A DNA stretch of 64,000 nucleotides, taken from assembly GCA_964344435.1 (NCBI GenBank), contig CAYFNH010000002.1:851-64850 (forward strand), in the 5' to 3' direction. Of the stretch, positions 766 through 55,400 are shown one piece after another (position 1 is the first letter of the stretch; every line of letters begins with the position of its first letter). Origin of the DNA: an uncultured Piscirickettsiaceae bacterium (lineage in GTDB: Bacteria > Pseudomonadota > Gammaproteobacteria > GCF-002020875). Under the pieces are notes generated by a model, which saw nothing but the letters and a program-made list of their open reading frames with translations, had not been told where the DNA came from and did no database searches. Position numbers and translations under genes: made by a program.

Positions 766-2184
766 ATGAGTAATATCGAGATCACAGACAACTATATCGT
801 CGCGGACATGAGCCTCAAGGAGTGGGGCCACAAGGAGTTGCGCATCGCCGAGGTGGAGATGCCCGGACTGATGGCGCTACGCAACAAATATGGCGAGGAG
901 AAACCGCTACAGGGGGCGAAAATCGCCGGTTCACTGCACATGACCATCCAGACTGCGGCCCTGATCGAGACCCTGACCGCACTCGGGGCCGAGGTGCGCT
1001 GGGCCTCCTGCAACATCTACTCTACCCAGGATCACGCCGCCGCCGCGATTGCCGATCAGGGCATCCCGGTCTTTGCCTACAAGGGAGAGAGCCTGGAGGA
1101 TTACTGGCAGTACACCCACAAGATCATGGAGTGGGGGGATGCCACCGAGAGCGGTGGTCCCAACATGATTCTGGACGATGGAGGGGACGCCACCCTGCTG
1201 TTGATCCTCGGTTCCAAGGCGGAGAAAGATCTCTCCGTACTCGATAATCCGGAGAGCGAAGAAGAGACCGTACTCTACGCCGCAATCAAGGCGAAACTGG
1301 CGGAGAGCCCGAACTGGTATTCGGAAAAACTGGCCGGTGTACAAGGGGTCACCGAGGAGACCACCACCGGTGTTCACCGTCTCTACCAGATGGAGGAGGC
1401 AGGTGAGTTGCCGTTCCCGGCCATCAACGTCAATGACTCGGTCACCAAGTCCAAGTTCGACAACCTCTACGGCTGTCGAGAGTCCCTGGTTGATGGCATC
1501 AAACGTGCCACCGACGTGATGATTGCCGGAAAGATTGCGCTCGTGCTCGGTTACGGAGACGTCGGTAAAGGGTGTGCTCAATCGCTACGCGGCCTCGGTG
1601 CCACCGTATGGGTCACCGAAATCGACCCCATCTGCGCGCTGCAGGCGTCAATGGAGGGATACCGCGTCGTAACCATGGATGAGGCCGCTTCACAAGCGGA
1701 CATCTTCGTCACCGCAACCGGTAACTTCAACGTCATCACCCATGACCACATGGTGCAGATGAAGCACGAGTCGATTGTCTGCAACATCGGTCACTTCGAC
1801 AACGAGATCGATGTCGCCAACATGAAGCAGTACGAGTGGGAGAACATCAAGCCTCAGGTCGACCACATCACCCTGCCCAGCGGCAACAAGATCATTCTTC
1901 TTGCCGAAGGTCGCTTGGTCAATCTGGGTTGTGCCACCGGCCACCCCAGCTTTGTGATGTCCAACTCCTTCACCAACCAGACCCTGGCACAGATGGAGCT
2001 GTTCAATCAGGATGGTAGCTACGAGAACAAGGTCTACACCCTGCCCAAGCACCTTGATGAGGAGGTGGCCCGCCACCACCTGGAGAAGATCGGAGCCCAC
2101 CTCACCACGCTGAGCCAGAAACAGGCAGACTACATCAGCGTACCAGTTCAAGGCCCCTACAAGCCTGACCACTACCGCTACTAA
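766..2184 (+). CDS. ahcY: adenosylhomocysteinase
   Basis: 472 aa; translation matches the SAH hydrolase family, including the NAD-binding region ([18 protein letters not shown]). Confidence 0.95.
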
Positions 2185-2203
2185 AAAGCGGCCTCACGCA
2201 AAG

Positions 2204-2246
2204 CCGCCAAGACGCAATATATTGTGTCTTGGCGGCTTTATTTTTT
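2204..2246 (+). terminator. Rho-independent terminator after ahcY
   Basis: Stem GCCGCCAAGAC / GTCTTGGCGGC, ~11-nt loop, followed by TTTATTTTTT. Confidence 0.7.
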
Positions 2247-2370
2247 GCAGAACAACACCGTCACTGCTACTGTTTCAGAATATTTATCAGCAATCTCTTT
2301 CATTTCTCTTGGTGCCTTTGCGCCTTTGCGTGAGAATGCTGTTCTTGTCTCATTAACAAGGTTAAACACG

Positions 2371-3222
2371 ATGAATAGCACCGCCCTCCAATTCAGCCTC
2401 GAATTCTTTCCCCCCAAAACCGACAAGGGACGAGAAAATCTGGCGAACACCCAGAAAACCCTGTTCGATGCAATACAACCCGCCTACGCCTCGGTCACCT
2501 TCGGGGCTGGCGGCAGTACTCAGGAGGGTACCTACGATGCGGTGATGGCGATACACCAACAGGGGATCGAGGCGGCTCCTCACCTCTCCTGTATCGGCTC
2601 CACCCGCGATGAACTCCGCAACATCCTCAATCGCTACAAGGATCAGGGCATCCACCGCATTGTTGCACTACGGGGCGACATGCCCTCCGGCATGGGAGCC
2701 GCCGGAGATTTTCGTTATGCCAATGAGCTGGTGGCATTCATTCGTGAAGAGACCGGCAATCACTTCCATATCGAGGTGGCGGCCTATCCCGAATTTCATC
2801 CACAGGCAGCGGATGCCTTCACCGACCTGCAGAACTTCAAGCGCAAGGTGGAGGCAGGCGCAGACAGCGCCATCACCCAGTATTTTTACAATATTGACGC
2901 TTATCTTCGCTTCAATGAGGAGTGCGCACTGATGGGGCTGGATCTGCCGATCGTCCCCGGCATCATGCCGATCACCAACTACACCAACCTTGCCCGCTTT
3001 TCCGAAATGTGCGGGGCGGAGATTCCTCGCTGGATTCGCGAACGGTTGGTTGCATATAGAGATGACACCGACTCACTGCGCTCCTTCGGGCTGGAGGTAA
3101 CCACCCGCCTCTGCCAGGATCTGCTCAGTGCCGGTGCCCCGGGGCTTCATTTCTACACCATGAACCAGTCTGCAGCAACGCTGGAGGTATTTAGCCATCT
3201 CGATCTGCAAGAAGAGAGATAA
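2371..3222 (+). CDS. metF: 5,10-methylenetetrahydrofolate reductase
   Basis: MNSTALQFSLEFFPPKT... matches the typical MetF N-terminus. ATG at 2371 lies inside track ORF 2224..3222; the upstream ORF extension reads through the ahcY terminator. Confidence 0.9.
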   Translation: MNSTALQFSLEFFPPKTDKGRENLANTQKTLFDAIQPAYASVTFGAGGSTQEGTYDAVMAIHQQGIEAAPHLSCIGSTRDELRNILNRYKDQGIHRIVALRGDMPSGMGAAGDFRYANELVAFIREETGNHFHIEVAAYPEFHPQAADAFTDLQNFKRKVEAGADSAITQYFYNIDAYLRFNEECALMGLDLPIVPGIMPITNYTNLARFSEMCGAEIPRWIRERLVAYRDDTDSLRSFGLEVTTRLCQDLLSAGAPGLHFYTMNQSAATLEVFSHLDLQEER

Positions 3223-26770: not shown

Positions 26771-28483
26771 CTACTCCGGTAGCGCCTCGATAATGGCCTC
26801 ATCCAGGGCTCTGGCTGCAGCCTCAATCTCCTCATCGGAGCTGAGCTGATCCACGGCATCACACACCGTTCTCGCCAGATCGGTCAACCGAGGGTAGCCA
26901 AAGTTCGCGGCACTACCTTTGATGTTGTGTGCAGCCAACCGCAGCGCCTCCCACGCCCGTTCCTGCAGGGCACTACGAATTTCATGCTGGCGCTCGGCCG
27001 TACCCTGTAGAAAAATTTCTCTCAACTCGTCACTCACCACCAATTCATGGCTATGCGGGGCAAGCTGAAGTGACTTTGCCTCCTCTGCACTGAGTGATTG
27101 CAGGTACTGCTGCAACACCTTCTCCAGTGTGGATTCATCAACCGGCTTGGAGAGAAATGCATCGGCCCCCGCCTGCATGAATTTATTGCGATGCACCTGC
27201 ATCACATTGGCCGTGAGTGCAACAATCGGCACCTGACAGAAGGATTGGCGCAACAAGGTAGTGGCCTCAATGCCATCCATCACCGGCATCTGCATATCCA
27301 TCAAAATCAGATCCCAGGATTCAGATAACCCCCGCTCCAGAGCCTGCTGGCCATCCTCGGCAATCACCACTTCGATGCCATACCCCTCCAGCAACTGGCG
27401 CATCAGCAACTGTACCTCGCGGGTATCTTCCGCCACCAAGATCCGTCCTTGAAAATAGAGCAGCTCATCCTCCTGTCCGGCCTCTGCAATCGGCTCCCCC
27501 TGCTGCAACGGAAGATCCACCTGAAAACGGGAACCTCTCCCCTCTTCACTCTGTACCTCCACCATTCCCCCCATCAGCTGGATCAGTTTCCAGGAGATGT
27601 GCAACCCCAGTCCGGTTCCACCGTGCCTGCGGGAGATTGCCGAGTCGGCCTGATAGAAGGGTTCAAAGAGCTGTTCGATCACCTCTGTGGACATGCCGAT
27701 TCCCTGATCCTCAACCACGATCCGGATCCAGCTCCCCTGCCCCAGTGGCCCCTCCTCCAGCTGTTCAACCTGTAGATGTACCTCACCCTGATCGGTGAAC
27801 TTCACCGCATTGCCACAGAGGTTGAGCATAATCTGGCGAACCCGCTGCAGATCACCAATCAACAGGTGGTCAAAAACCCCCTTCAGTTCCGCCTTGAAGG
27901 TGATGCCATCATCGGTCGAGCGGCGTGGAAAAATCTTCTGCAGCTCCTCAACCAGCTCACGCATGTTGAAAGGGCTCCACTCCAGACTGAACCCCTCGGT
28001 ATCCAGTCGGGAGAGATCCAGAATGTCATTCAGCATATAGAGTAGAGAGCGCCCGGAGATATCGATGGTCTGCAGTGTCTCCTGTTGCACCACAGTCAAG
28101 TCACTCTTTGCCAGCTGATCACTACTGCCCAGCAGAACCGTCAATGGGGTGCGCAGTTCGTGGCTCATGGTGGCCATGAACTCATCCCGAGCCTGATGGG
28201 CCCTGTCAATCTCCGCTTGCTGCTCCCGCAGTTGCTGCTGCATCGGGGTGACTACCACCTGCTGCACACTGCTCCAGAGCAGCCCCCAGACCGCCCCGAT
28301 AAACAGAACCAATACAACCATGGTCTCCATCAGGTAGAGCTCTACAAAGGTATTACTAACCAGCCCCAACCCAACCAACACCAACAGCACGACCGCAGCC
28401 AACAGCAACAGCACTCGACGCAGCAACGGACGCTGCCAGCGCAGCTCGACCGCTTCATCCCCCCTGTGTACGAATGCTCCCAT
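26771..28483 (-). CDS. hybrid sensor histidine kinase (2 TM, HisKA, HATPase, REC, Hpt)
   Basis: H-box MSHELRTPLT, G-boxes, receiver LILMDMQMPVMDG, C-terminal Hpt signature AAHNIKGSAANFG. Confidence 0.9.
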   Translation of the reverse strand: MGAFVHRGDEAVELRWQRPLLRRVLLLLAAVVLLVLVGLGLVSNTFVELYLMETMVVLVLFIGAVWGLLWSSVQQVVVTPMQQQLREQQAEIDRAHQARDEFMATMSHELRTPLTVLLGSSDQLAKSDLTVVQQETLQTIDISGRSLLYMLNDILDLSRLDTEGFSLEWSPFNMRELVEELQKIFPRRSTDDGITFKAELKGVFDHLLIGDLQRVRQIMLNLCGNAVKFTDQGEVHLQVEQLEEGPLGQGSWIRIVVEDQGIGMSTEVIEQLFEPFYQADSAISRRHGGTGLGLHISWKLIQLMGGMVEVQSEEGRGSRFQVDLPLQQGEPIAEAGQEDELLYFQGRILVAEDTREVQLLMRQLLEGYGIEVVIAEDGQQALERGLSESWDLILMDMQMPVMDGIEATTLLRQSFCQVPIVALTANVMQVHRNKFMQAGADAFLSKPVDESTLEKVLQQYLQSLSAEEAKSLQLAPHSHELVVSDELREIFLQGTAERQHEIRSALQERAWEALRLAAHNIKGSAANFGYPRLTDLARTVCDAVDQLSSDEEIEAAARALDEAIIEALPE

Positions 28484-32797: not shown

Positions 32798-32873
<76 letters not shown>

Positions 32874-34188: not shown

Positions 34189-34198
34189 AGCTCACTTG

Positions 34199-34436
34199 AA
34201 CCTAGATTCCTCAGTTGGACGGGCCAAAGTGTGCGTACAGGCGTGCGCAGGACAAGGCACAACGACGCGTAATAGCCAGCTATTGCAAGGAGTTGTAACG
34301 CAGTAATGCGTGCGCCTGTGCGTGCAATTTGGTTCGTAGCGATCTTCACCCGTTGAGTGAAGCTGGTTTCTTGAGAAATTGTTTGCATAAGAAGATGTTG
34401 AGCCTGCTTCAAGCGGTCAACTGAGGATTCTAGGTT
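34199..34436. mobile_element. MITE-like element, copy 1 (~238 bp, ~20-bp terminal inverted repeats)
   Basis: Ends AACCTAGATTCCTCAGTTGGAC ... GTCAACTGAGGATTCTAGGTT are near-perfect inverted repeats. Non-coding, with internal imperfect palindromes (GTGCGTACAGGCGTGCGCAGG / GCGTGCGCCTGTGCGTGC). A second ~96% identical copy is at 43918..44155. Confidence 0.8.
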
Positions 34437-34442
34437 AAAGAC

Positions 34443-36878: not shown

Positions 36879-40574
<3,696 letters not shown>

Positions 40575-43853: not shown

Positions 43854-43917
43854 TTCGTTTTCTCCTGATTGCAATTAGCTAACTTAGCTATATTGTACAA
43901 TCACCCTTGTGATTTTC

Positions 43918-44155
43918 AACCTAGATTCCTCAGTTGGACGAGCCAAAGTGTGCGTACAGGCGTGCGCAGGACAAGGCACAACGACGCGTAATAGCCAGCT
44001 ATTGCAAGGAGTTGTAACGCAGTAATGCGTGCACCTGTGCGTGCAATTTGGTTCGTAGCGATCTTCACCCGTTGAGTGAAGCTGGTTTCTCGATAAATTG
44101 TTTATATAATAAGATGTTGATCCTGTTTCAAGCGGTCAACTGAGGATTCTAGGTT
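43918..44155. mobile_element. MITE-like element, copy 2
   Basis: ~96% identical to 34199..34436, same terminal inverted repeats, same orientation. Confidence 0.8.
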
Positions 44156-44172
44156 CAACCACAGTTTGCACA

Positions 44173-45212: not shown

Positions 45213-48200
45213 CTATCGGAACAGGGGCTGGCGCTGGTCATGCGCACTCCCGCCCCAGAAGCGATCGGCATTGAGTTTGGTTGCATCCGGGTGTTTACTG
45301 ACCGAGAGGATGCTGTACTCCTGCTGTTGAACGTCCCGTTTCAGTGGGCGTTGGTAACATTCACCATTCTTATCCCAAACCGCCATCACCATCGGGTGCA
45401 GCGCACTCTCTCCGCGCTTGACCACCAATGCAATCTCACCAGAGGCCAGTTTTACCGTGGTACCTGGTGGGTAGATCCCGAGCTCTGCAATCAACACCTT
45501 GCTCAACTGCACGTCATAATGCCCCTTTTTGCTGGAGACAAACTGCTGCATGATCTGCCGGGGAGTACCGGGGCTGCGGTAGCGGCGTGGTGAAATCATC
45601 GCACCATAGCGATCAGACAATGCAATCAACCGCGCCTCTAGCGGGATATCCCTGGCATGATAGCCATTGGGGTAACCGCTGCCATCCATCATCTCATGGT
45701 GATAGGCCACCGCATTGAGCCAGGTACGGTCGGTCACCCCCATCTTGATCAACGCCTTGACACTGTTTTTGGGATGCAGGCGAATGTGCATCTGGTGAAA
45801 AGTACTCAACGTCCCCTCCATCTCATGGAGATCATTTTGCATTGGGTAGAGCCCCAGGTTTTGGGTCAGACTGGCGCAGGAGAGCGCACGAATCGTGTGC
45901 TCACTCCAGCCAAGGCGCTGTGCCGTCAACACCGCCACCATGGTGTTCTGAATGGTACGCATGATGGTGTGTGGAAAATGGGTGTAGAGATGGATCACTC
46001 CGATAAAGAGGTCTGCATCCTCAGTCAGTTTCGTAACCACCTCGTCCGCCAGCTCGACAATATCCTCGGAGAGGTTATAGCCATCCTGGGCATAGCTGGA
46101 ATAGAGCTTCTCGAGCCGCTCCACCAGCTCTTCTACATATCGGCTTGCCGTGGGCACACGTCGCAGATGGTTGAAGTGTTCTCGGGTCTGCTCCCAATCC
46201 AGCTGCTGCAACGACTCAATCAGGGCCTCCTTGCTACGGCTGGTACGCTGAACAAAGGAGGTGATCAGCTCTTCATCACTCTGGGCCGACATCTGCTTCA
46301 ACAGGTACTGGTTGACCACATAACGCAACTCGTTATGATCCAGTGGTTTGCTCATGAAGCCGTCACAACCTGCCTCAAAAAATTCATCCTGATAACGCTG
46401 TTCGGTATAGGCCGTCAGGGCGATGATCGGAGCCTCGCAACTCTGCTCTCGCAGAATGCTGGTTGCCTCAACCCCCCCCATGACCGGCATCTCCATATCC
46501 ATCAAGATCAGGTCGAAGTGCTCCTGCAGCGCCCGCTCAACCGCCTCCTTGCCATTGCTGGCAACCACCACCGAGGCCCCCACCTGCTCCAGCATACGCT
46601 TCTCCAGAGCCTGCATGATCGGCACATCATCCACCACCAGCACCTTGCCGGAGACTCGTTGATGTTGCGCAGAGCGCTCCTGTGGTTCATTCACAGAAGA
46701 CTTCAGTGGAGTGCGACCGACAGGGCGATAGGGGAGTTTGAGACGAAAGATCGAGCCAACCCCAAGCTCACTGGTCACATCCATCGCCCCCCCATCAATC
46801 TGGCCAACTGGAAAGCAACATAGAGGCCAAGCCCGTGCCCGGAGAATGTGCTCTCCTTCTGCTCTATCCGCTCCTTGAGCCGCCCCAGATCTTTCTCGGA
46901 CATCCCTACACCGGTATCCTCCACCTTGAAAAACAGGTGCTTCGTATCGTACCAGCAGGTGAGGCTGATCAATCCATGGTGGGTAAATTCAACCGCATTG
47001 TCCAACAGATGGGCGATGATCTGGGTGATACGGTGAGCATCCCCGTTGAGCTGGATATCCTGCTTGCCGGGGGGATGAAGCTGGAACTCCAGCCCGGCAT
47101 CATGAACGATGGTGATATAGTCGTGCTCGATATCCTTGAGCAGCACCGAAAGGCTGTAGTGGGTCTCATCCAGATCCAGAGTGCCACTCTCGATCTTGGA
47201 CATATCGATAATGTCGCCCACCAGCGAGAGCCGTTTGCGATCTGCCTTGGCAAAGGCCAGCGCCATCTGCCGCTCCTGCTCCATCCACTGTACATCGTTG
47301 GGATCATACTTGAGGGAGATAAATTTGATCGCCTCCCCATGCTGATCCATCACCGGGATAATCATGGAGCGGTTCCAGAAGGTGGCTCCATCCTTTCTGC
47401 GGTCCATAAGATCACCGTACCAGACCTCCCCCTTGCCAATCATCTCCCACATCTTCTGGTAGAAGGCCTCTGAATGTTCACCGGAGTTGAAGATACGGTG
47501 GTTTTCTCCGATCAGTTCACTACGCGAGTATCCGGTCAGCTCACAGAACAGGTCATTGACGTAGATAATTTTTCCTTCCCGGTCGGTAACACTGACATAG
47601 GTGCGCTTGTCCGCTTCCGGCACCGGGTATCTCCCCTCCTGTTGCACCATCTCGGGCAGGGGCTGTCCGCCCTGTGTCTTATGCTGCTCCAGCTGCTTGA
47701 ATCGACTCCAGCAGCTGGCGAGCGAGAGCGCTGTCTGTAGCAACCGTTTTGGTTCGACTGGCTTCCTGAAGTAGTCAAAATCGACCCCTACCTCTGCATG
47801 AAGCTGCTCCAGCTCATAATCGGAGTAGGCGCTGCAAAAGATGATGCGCACATTCCGGTCCACCGTCCGGATCATCTTTGCGGTCTTGACCCCATCCCAT
47901 CCCGGAGGCATCCGCATATCCAGCAGAATCACCGCATAGGGGCTGTTCTCGGCCAGCGCCTGCTTGACCATCAGGAACCCCTCCTTGCCGCTCAATGCAC
48001 AGTCGTGTTCGAAATAGATGGGGGTATCACTGGAGATCTCCATATCCCCCCCATCATTGCCGTCATCTCATGCAGAACAGGGTCAATCCCGGTGTCGTGC
48101 CGGAAGATGGTTGCATAGGTATCGTGTACTTGTTTGCTGTCGTCAATAGAGAGTAGCCGCCACCTCGGCTGCTGAACCTCCTCACTATTGATTGGCTCTC

Positions 48201-55018: not shown

Positions 55019-55159
55019 AGGCTGGCTATTATCCCCTCAGTTGAGAGAACTTCAAACGGGGCTGCACCACTCATTCTGGAAAGGCCGGAAATTGGTCTCC
55101 TGCAGAAAAGTCCCGTTTGACTTGGTAAAACAATCTCTATATGATCCGCCTCCTGTTTT

Positions 55160-55400
55160 GGGTTCTCTGCTCAATATCCATTGAACAGGGTGAAAAGGGA
55201 AGTCTGGTGCGCTCAACCACAGCAACTCCAGCGCTGCCCCCGCAACGGTAGGTGAGGATAATCGGATCACACGCCACTGCATCGATGATGTGGGAAGGCG
55301 ATTCGAACGGTACACAGAGACCACTCACAAGCCCGGAGACCTGCCCGAGACAATACGTAGGCCAAATCGCGGCGGGCGATAGCCGGGCAACGCTACTGCT
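55160..55400 (+). promoter_or_regulatory. cobalamin (AdoCbl) riboswitch in the btuB leader
   Basis: Conserved GGTGAAAAGGGAA...GGTGCG...CTGCCCCCGCAACGGTA core, B12 box ACGCCACTG, and downstream GGGAAGGCG. It sits ~100-300 nt upstream of the btuB ATG (55478). Confidence 0.8.

Follow-up and report, generated by a model that had tools for sequence, protein, structure and literature searches.

A probable miniature transposable element with IS1380-type ends and a structure-conserved hairpin core in an uncultured Piscirickettsiaceae bacterium

What are the two near-identical repeats that lie 9.7 kb apart in the genome of an uncultured Piscirickettsiaceae bacterium, and why do they carry a long hairpin? 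The stretch analyzed here, called the window throughout, comprises 64,000 nucleotides of contig CAYFNH010000002.1 (assembly GCA_964344435.1, positions 851 to 64,850 of the forward strand). A sequence-only reading of the window had described the repeats as two copies of a novel MITE (miniature inverted-repeat transposable element) of about 238 bp, bounded by terminal inverted repeats (TIRs) some 20 bp long. It is highly probable that both repeats are indeed a non-autonomous transposable element of this kind, with ends of the IS1380 family of insertion sequences (ISs).

The two repeats were compared in a pairwise alignment that included 50 nt of flanking sequence on each side, and were found to be near-identical from AACCTAG to CTAGGTT and unrelated outside. 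A repeat search over the whole window returned a single two-copy family (244 nt, 95% identity) and no longer repeat linking the two regions. The 22-nt terminus, with up to three mismatches allowed, matched four times in the window, namely at both ends of both copies, with no match expected from 100 shuffles. The refined element, CCTAGA…TCTAGG, is 234 bp long and occupies 34201-34434 and 43920-44153, its boundaries lying 2 bp inward of those first proposed; the outermost AA/TT is part of a 5-bp target-site duplication and does not belong to the element. Thus, the discrete TIR-bounded element of the sequence-only reading stood, whereas its size was revised to 234 bp and its inverted repeats to about 17–18 bp (CCTAGATTCCTCAGTTGG / CCTAGAATCCTCAGTTGA). 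The proposed identity of about 96% held, with nine differences between the refined copies (96.2%), seven of them within a 49-nt AT-rich segment. The copies are also non-coding, as claimed: no open reading frame (ORF) is conserved across an alignment of 41 related elements, and the transposase start codon and frame have decayed. Inspection of the flanks, suggested in the sequence-only reading, revealed a perfect target-site duplication at copy 2 (TTCAA/TTCAA) and a match of four of the five positions at copy 1 (TTGAA/TTAAA). The continued flanking homology that it had named as counterevidence was not found, and homology stops at the element ends. The parts of the two copies, with window coordinates and strand, are as follows.

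34196..34200, no strand: left target-site duplication of copy 1 (TTGAA); its right counterpart is TTAAA, and the family target consensus is WTNAW
34201..34434, plus: MITE copy 1, 234 bp (CCTAGA...TCTAGG)
34201..34218, plus: left TIR, CCTAGATTCCTCAGTTGG, equivalent to the transposase-distal (IRR) side of the full-length IS; 17–18 nt are identical to the ends at loci L064 and L078
34219..34337, plus: long imperfect hairpin of about 119 nt, kept in structure and variable in sequence, rich in G-U pairs, with a conserved purine-rich internal loop containing AAGGAG
34336..34341, plus: linker GTAGCG, placed at the hairpin's 3' foot, its columns nearly invariant in the alignment
34345..34361, plus: small palindrome of the TTCACCC-N-GGTGAA type, conserved in sequence, antisense to the first transposase codons (LHPxGE) of the full-length IS
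34362..34410, plus: AT-rich, fast-evolving segment, antisense to the remnant of the transposase promoter and 5' untranslated region, homologous to the IRL side of loci L064 and L105
34411..34434, plus: right TIR with conserved extension, AAGCGGTCAACTGAGGATTCTAGG, the transposase-proximal (IRL) end
34435..34439, no strand: right target-site duplication of copy 1 (TTAAA)
43915..43919, no strand: left target-site duplication of copy 2 (TTCAA), from which most of the -35-like TTGAAA in the predicted minus-strand phd/vapC promoter derives
43920..44153, plus: MITE copy 2, 234 bp, with internal parts as in copy 1
43920-43937, plus: left TIR of copy 2
43938-44056, plus: hairpin of copy 2
44055-44060, plus: GTAGCG of copy 2
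44064-44080, plus: small palindrome of copy 2
44081-44129, plus: AT-rich segment of copy 2
44130-44153, plus: right TIR of copy 2
44154..44158, no strand: right target-site duplication of copy 2 (TTCAA, perfect)

How widely is this element distributed? One representative genome for each of 185,579 species was scanned with the terminus query AACCTAGAWTCCTCAGTTG, which yielded at least 118 stretches in about 45 assemblies, either metagenome-assembled genomes (MAGs) or isolates, nearly all of them from Beta- and Gammaproteobacteria. The carriers include Rhodoferax and other Comamonadaceae, Nitrosomonas (with the isolate Nm33, which has at least four copies, among them L047, L063 and L084), Accumulibacter and Hydrogenophilales, as well as Thiothrix, Thiotrichaceae, Thiodiazotropha, Sedimenticola, Arenicellales and others. 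Most matches were observed as plus/minus pairs about 235 bp apart, or at contig ends. Perfect 5-bp duplications, mostly TTNAA, flank 38 of the 63 complete elements recovered through the terminal repeat. A conserved flank cannot explain the perfect duplications of other sequence in this sample (CTGAA, ATGAA, GTAAA, TTCAT and TTGAT).

A second sample was drawn from JGI metagenomes with the apical motif of the hairpin, AAGGCRCAACGAYGCGGAAT, in place of the terminus. At least 120 stretches were found, about half of them without the original terminus. In these, the architecture was unchanged and other terminus subtypes were present, with left and right ends matching each other (CCTAAATCCGGCAGTTG, CCTAGAAACCTCAGTTG, CCTAGAAACGGCAGTTG, CCTGGAAAGATCAGTTG and more). 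The apical motif was found only inside the TIR-bounded architecture, with one chance-like exception (L228). Perfect 5-bp duplications flank 48 of the 74 complete metagenome elements, most commonly TTCAA, ATCAT, TTTAA and ATAAT; the target consensus over both samples is WTNAW, and the perfect duplications also include pentamers counted as non-consensus, such as CTGAA, GTAAA and ATGAT. The length mode is 234–237 bp over both samples and 236–237 bp in the metagenomes. The flanks of related copies are unrelated to the window, and the architecture recurs in at least 200 fetched loci in both orientations. The word "novel" of the sequence-only reading holds only in the sense of undescribed; public genomes and metagenomes contain the MITE in abundance. 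Several short-read contigs from the source metagenomic population (PRJEB17505; GCA_973355605.1) break off within the element, which is the behavior expected of a repeat with many copies. In the plasmid collection no DNA match was found, and protein matches comprised only a truncated, uninformative Polaromonas copy and a distant Aliarcobacter match (27% identity); among viral contigs, the terminus was not found.

Size variants also occur. Those of 278–320 bp (L016 4082-4401, L111 7437-7714 and L102 ~640-953) carry extra hairpin segments in the rod and not at the tip, indicating that the rod tolerates extension. Expanded variants of about 380–400 bp (L138 839-1214, and also L162, L168, L179, L202, L214, L219 and L220), from several metagenomes, contain a GC-rich conserved insertion of about 150–170 nt (GCGACCGCGAAGGGAGGAGCAGTGCCTTCCGCAGGAAGG…), which sits in the long hairpin's apical loop. 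Deletion derivatives without the hairpin exist; each is unique and none forms a multi-copy lineage. Overall, the family is a large, purely non-autonomous lineage in which the termini diversified and the hairpin was kept.

Where do the ends come from? The full-length IS with the same TIRs that the sequence-only reading suggested looking for do exist, and encode IS1380-family transposases. Three loci carry the terminus type of the MITE on a full-length or truncated IS. At L064 (4958-6637), a 1.68-kb element with an ATAA duplication contains two ORF fragments matching IS1380 transposase models. At L078, from an Opitutaceae MAG, an identical 19-nt terminus is followed by a transposase gene, and an intact relative of 98% identity, P0002, scored 179.9 bits against the cutoff of 180 for the NCBIfam model transpos_IS1380, over profile positions 2–411 of 419. 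L120 is a 1.7-kb relative with a slightly different terminus. The same NCBIfam model was the best match for all transposases examined, fragments included (E = 1e-12 to 1e-36), and Pfam DDE_Tnp_1_4 also matches. Direct repeats of 4–5 bp and termini starting with CC were seen in these elements, both features of the IS1380 family as catalogued in ISfinder.

The homology extends beyond the termini. In L064, L120, L124 and the L105 remnant, an ATG lies about 45 nt inward of the terminus, and the codons after it, …(L/T)HPxGE, form the small palindrome TCACCC-N4-GGTGA; the corresponding codons of L078 (IQLAGEA) are no more than partly palindromic. Read on the minus strand, the MITE's right-hand 95 bp are homologous to this IS start, with terminus, AT-rich stretch and palindrome, and the left terminus corresponds to the other IS end. 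Of the IS, the MITE thus retains only some 95 bp at the transposase-proximal end and some 20 bp at the opposite one. From these sequence comparisons, IS1380 is identified as the putative donor family of the MITE ends.

Several points weigh against the reading of the repeats as a MITE with IS1380-type ends, or limit it. The duplication at copy 1 has one mismatch. No empty site or insertion polymorphism was found at either window copy, since all site-spanning contigs of the source population carry both. Among the recovered IS copies, none is an autonomous IS with the exact IRL-proximal sequence of the MITE (…CAGTTGACCGCT…). Most of the L064-type transposase genes recovered are broken or short. 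Because the evidence consists of duplications and distribution, without empty sites, we infer mobility rather than observe it. In favor of a non-autonomous element, IS1380 transposases were found neither in the 64-kb window nor in the 688 kb around 120 hairpin-bearing elements. Since the window encodes no transposase, mobilization would occur in trans, in agreement with the transposase encoded elsewhere of the sequence-only reading; its word "recent" is relative, given 4% divergence between the copies and one decayed duplication.

The L064-type transposases also show a peculiarity of their own. Nearly all of those recovered (P0121–P0240; L064, L120 and L124) are at most 390 aa long, compared with about 470–510 aa expected, and in the L120 transposase a frameshift lies close to the ENVFDELKNQWG motif. 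The explanation is either that most copies are dead or that expression requires recoding.

Some candidates for a full-length IS that carries the hairpin were rejected. Loci L009 and L016 each contain a MITE and a separate solo end, loci with a single terminus are truncated copies, and L105 and L204, considered as hairpin-carrying elements of 1.8–1.9 kb, are MITEs interrupted by an unrelated IS4-family element. This element (transposase of 429–453 aa, ends about ACGGTGTCCGG) lies inside the small palindrome CACCC-N4-GGTG of the MITE at two independent loci with different MITE subtypes (L105 4826-6454; L204 ~917-2463, minus strand), and at L204 it is flanked by an 11-bp duplication, ACCCCGCAGGT. 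It appears to target palindromes, comparable to IS1397 and ISKpn1 in REP sequences.

What, then, is the remaining half of the MITE? Between the left terminus and the small palindrome lies an imperfect hairpin of about 120 nt, followed by the nearly invariant GTAGCG. The GC-rich imperfect palindrome mentioned in the sequence-only reading is therefore real, and its plus strand folds as RNA at -113.5 kcal/mol (z = -9.2). The hairpin was absent from four full-length or truncated IS copies inspected; in L064 and L120 the distance from the transposase stop codon to the terminus is only 58–88 nt, and the sequence there is unrelated to the hairpin. The 41 aligned elements (226–252 bp, from many genera) were oriented by homology. 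RNAalifold predicted 53 pairs on this alignment, 34 of them with compensatory double changes. Standard pairs occupy 95.7% of hairpin cells, compared with 76.0% in column shuffles (none of 500 reached the observed value) and 33–40% when partners were slid. The covariation score was 0.545 vs. 0.176. The stem sequences differ entirely while pairing is kept, as in GTGTGCGTACAGGCGTGCGCA from the window, GGGCTGCCAGGAGCGTGCA from Comamonadaceae and AGTAATTCTTTTAGGCTGA from Thiotrichaceae. In the small palindrome and the termini, by contrast, it is the sequence that is conserved, which would suit protein-binding sites on double-stranded DNA. Divergence between copies within one genome is 14.1% in the AT-rich segment, 7–8.5% in the hairpin and 3.7% in the TIRs. 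The hairpin also contains a conserved purine-rich internal loop, with …ACGACGC… opposite …CAAGGAG….

The AAGGAG of this loop resembles a Shine-Dalgarno sequence and is conserved in the Beta and Gamma subfamilies (window 34285-34356 and 44004-44075). In the window copies, a 16-codon ORF (MRAPVRAIWFVAIFTR; 34306-34356) begins 13 nt after it. As a conserved small ORF this candidate was rejected: the betaproteobacterial and Thiothrix subfamilies lack its ATG, and the ORF is probably not functional.

Only one strand of the hairpin appears to matter. In the window copy, the fold of the plus strand (-113.5 kcal/mol) is far more stable than that of its complement (-78.1 kcal/mol), and in 42 of 43 elements the strand equivalent to the window plus strand folds more stably, by up to 35 kcal/mol. 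The hairpin cells comprise 1050 Watson-Crick pairs, 222 G·U and 14 A·C, so that wobble pairs make up about 16% and outnumber A·C by 16:1. At alignment columns 33/192 a wobble pair, in either orientation, is found in 37 of the 41 sequences, and the adjacent position is G-U in 20 of 41. Transitions in a stem give G·U and A·C equally, and insertion in both orientations cancels mutational bias; the ratio therefore indicates that one-strand pairing is selected in a single-stranded form. Thus, the hairpin pairing is selected on the single-stranded form of the window plus strand only. The consensus structure was itself predicted on the plus strand, which favors G-U counts and so detracts from this ratio; the energy asymmetry of each sequence is independent of that prediction.

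Which single-stranded form is this? Judged from the density and positional conservation of the wobble pairs and from the purine-rich loop, it is more likely RNA than single-stranded DNA. The fuller reading is put forward tentatively, as a possibility: the hairpin would be a module that works in single-stranded form, most likely as RNA, with a conserved tandem-purine/AAGGAG internal loop, and kept under selection by a purely non-autonomous lineage across Beta- and Gammaproteobacteria for a putative role in propagation or control. The evidence on transcription and orientation counts against an RNA form. No sigma-70-like promoter was predicted upstream of the hairpin on the plus strand; the folded strand is antisense to the transposase remnant, and the only recognizable promoter element, a -35-like TTGACC inside the right terminus, lies on the minus strand. 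Plus-strand RNA would need read-through transcription, because the hairpin has no promoter of its own upstream. Nor was any orientation bias found relative to flanking ORFs, with 21 upstream and 22 downstream reading into the element, and 13 and 15 divergent. In addition, single-stranded DNA would explain the asymmetry of G-T over A-C equally well. The lack of orientation bias argues against selection on individual insertions through the neighboring gene, but is consistent with selection between element copies for how well they propagate or are tolerated, in which only suitably transcribed or replicated copies are active and new insertions are random. The neighboring ORFs do show a gene-end preference, 43 of 71 ending beside the element versus 28 starting there. 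A conserved terminator was also considered and rejected, as the small palindrome was called terminator-like in the window copies alone.

The alternative that survives best, though somewhat doubtful, is that the hairpin acts as single-stranded DNA, on the lagging-strand template or in a transposition intermediate, joining the ends or serving as a structure-specific site and thereby raising transposition. For the strand asymmetry any single-stranded form suffices, and no DNA mismatch is more stable than G-T, so that the wobble excess fits DNA too. The missing plus-strand promoter and the absence of orientation bias relative to genes are likewise in its favor, and lengths cluster so tightly in either sample (mode 234–237 bp) as to suggest that a geometric constraint acts between the ends; hairpin-less deletion derivatives were not seen as multi-copy lineages. 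However, double-stranded ends are what the DDE transposases of this superfamily act on, and IS1380/piggyBac relatives are not known to pass through a single-stranded step. No orientation bias was observed relative to local GC skew either (20 vs. 23, a weak test), and a wobble content of about 16%, with one position wobbling in 37 of 41 sequences, looks more RNA-like.

Could the repeats instead be primarily genes for a structured small RNA, the inverted repeats forming a closing stem and the copies being paralogous RNA genes? The covariation is as strong as in curated RNA families, the fold is strand-specific and the purine-rich loop with AAGGAG is conserved. This is nevertheless improbable, given that most copies are bordered by 5-bp target duplications, that the supposed closing stem has exactly the sequence found at the ends of IS encoding transposases, and that one arm carries a remnant of the transposase promoter and start. 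The copies also stand in unrelated contexts in both orientations, have no predicted promoter and have no match in Rfam, where no match to the element in the window reached the gathering score and three element variants and one expanded variant gave only chance-level matches (E up to 10). The duplications and the IS homology contradict a small-RNA family as the exclusive explanation, and it survives only as a MITE carrying an RNA module.

A recombination system that depends on single-stranded hairpins, such as integron attC sites, IS200/IS605-type elements, REP/RAYT or retron msr-msd, is very improbable. Such systems would share a hairpin that is conserved in structure, variable in sequence and strand-specific, with a GTAG tetranucleotide at its foot, and GTTGGAC fits the attC core GTTRRRY. 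However, they lack the 5-bp duplications present here, no integrase, Y1 transposase or reverse transcriptase lies beside either window copy, and the GTTRRRY match falls in a transposon terminus common to DDE-transposase elements; the lack of an IS1380 transposase in the 688 kb around 120 relatives was also counted against them. Segmental duplication, or membership in a longer repeated block, has nothing in its favor beyond the two copies 9.7 kb apart and is refuted to near certainty by homology that ends exactly at the termini between unrelated flanks, by the lack of any other long repeat joining the regions and by hundreds of copies elsewhere in unrelated contexts.

For the favored reading, a MITE with a hairpin more likely active as RNA, the following mechanism is proposed. 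An IS1380-family DDE transposase, made elsewhere in the cell, would bind both MITE ends and probably also the sub-terminal palindrome TCACCC-N4-GGTGA, retained from the transposase-proximal ~95 bp of the IS, and the element would be inserted via a 5-bp staggered cut. With lower confidence, the hairpin form would be an RNA arising from read-through transcription. Because orientation is unbiased relative to genes and to GC skew, the benefit of the hairpin would most likely accrue to the element lineage, through propagation or tolerance of the copy, and not to individual host genes. As to its origin, an IS1380-type element may have captured 3'-adjacent DNA through substitute right ends and then undergone internal deletion, which is conjecture.

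How does the family compare with known systems? IS1380 elements such as ISEcp1 and ISPme1 have, like the MITE, CCTAGA… termini and direct repeats of 4–5 bp, and full-length elements with the exact 17–18-nt MITE terminus encode IS1380-type DDE transposases. The IRL of ISEcp1 is CCTAGATTCTACGT. Unlike these elements, the window MITE has no transposase, and a hairpin absent from the inspected IS copies makes up half of it. ISEcp1 and ISPme1 are known to capture DNA adjacent to the 3' end by means of substitute right ends (PMC9330008), which makes such capture a plausible origin of the foreign hairpin.

ERIC, Correia and especially bcr1 are close functional analogues, as far as comparison with described repeats can tell. 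The bcr1 repeat of the Bacillus cereus group is a non-autonomous repeat of about 155 bp with 5-bp direct repeats, is transcribed, and has compensatory changes that keep its structure at the RNA level (PMC3184786). The window MITE, known here from DNA alone, resembles it in small size, non-autonomy, 5-bp repeats and compensatory changes, and differs in host phylum, sequence and parent transposase, which are unrelated, and in spanning two proteobacterial classes with several terminal-repeat subtypes. The ERIC and Correia/NEMIS repeats are intergenic, 100–160 bp long and TIR-bounded; co-transcribed copies fold into RNA hairpins and are able to change the stability of the mRNA (PMC3184786). They show a gene-end preference similar to that described above, but have a TA target, other termini and different or unknown parent transposases. 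The transposases of IS1380 are distant prokaryotic relatives of piggyBac and have been used as an outgroup for it (PMC10140906). According to the literature, piggyBac inserts at TTAA and has termini starting with CCC and asymmetric sub-terminal repeats. The window MITE is similar in its CCT… termini, its TTNAA/ATNAT target and its single sub-terminal palindrome on one side only, and differs in a duplication of 5 bp instead of 4 bp and in its prokaryotic host. By this analogy, the WTNAW target and CCTAG termini would fit the kinship of IS1380 with piggyBac. In the papers searched, neither the terminus strings nor an IS1380-derived MITE of this kind was found.

The surroundings of the two copies are those of an ordinary chromosome, with a Mur-ligase family gene, tRNA-Phe, a GGDEF protein, YchJ, MetH, a histidine kinase and Phd/VapC. 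Both copies were confirmed to be intergenic. Copy 1 lies between the GGDEF gene and a convergent 316-aa gene, 12 nt after the stop codon of the former and 8 nt from that of the latter. Copy 2 lies between a divergent phd-vapC operon and a 126-aa ORF. The predicted phd/vapC promoter (43892-43919, minus strand) consists of TTGAAA, a 16-nt spacer and TACAAT, and its -35 element overlaps the target duplication of copy 2, which suggests that this copy landed at the promoter without destroying it.

Other features of the window include a SAH (S-adenosylhomocysteine) riboswitch (666-747, plus), tRNA-Phe (32798-32873, minus), B12-dependent MetH (36879-40574) and a cobalamin riboswitch (55143-55362, plus). 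A 122-nt direct repeat of 71% identity (27249-27370 and 46450-46571) is probably paralogous coding sequence.

What does the finding mean for the bacterium and for the family? Within the window the consequences are small, namely two intergenic insertions, one abutting convergent stop codons and the other at the -35 element of a toxin-antitoxin promoter. The element class, a bacterial MITE, is ordinary, and this family of it is undescribed, being found neither in Rfam nor in the literature searched. It is unusual in its two-class breadth, its foreign structured core, the strong structural selection on one strand and the lack of orientation bias relative to host genes. The foreign core, the RNA-like covariation, the one-strand selection and the unbiased orientation together suggest that selection acts on the element lineage. 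Bacteria of environmental importance, both cultured and uncultured, carry the family in abundance (Nitrosomonas, Accumulibacter, Rhodoferax, Thiothrix and sulfur-oxidizing symbionts), and it breaks short-read assemblies. If the hairpin is a functional RNA, it would represent an undescribed structured RNA class spread by IS1380-type MITEs, and not inert filler, and it might bind the transposase or a host RNA-binding protein. The family thus offers a natural case for asking why MITEs keep structured cores, a question made testable by the cultured carrier Nitrosomonas sp. Nm33.

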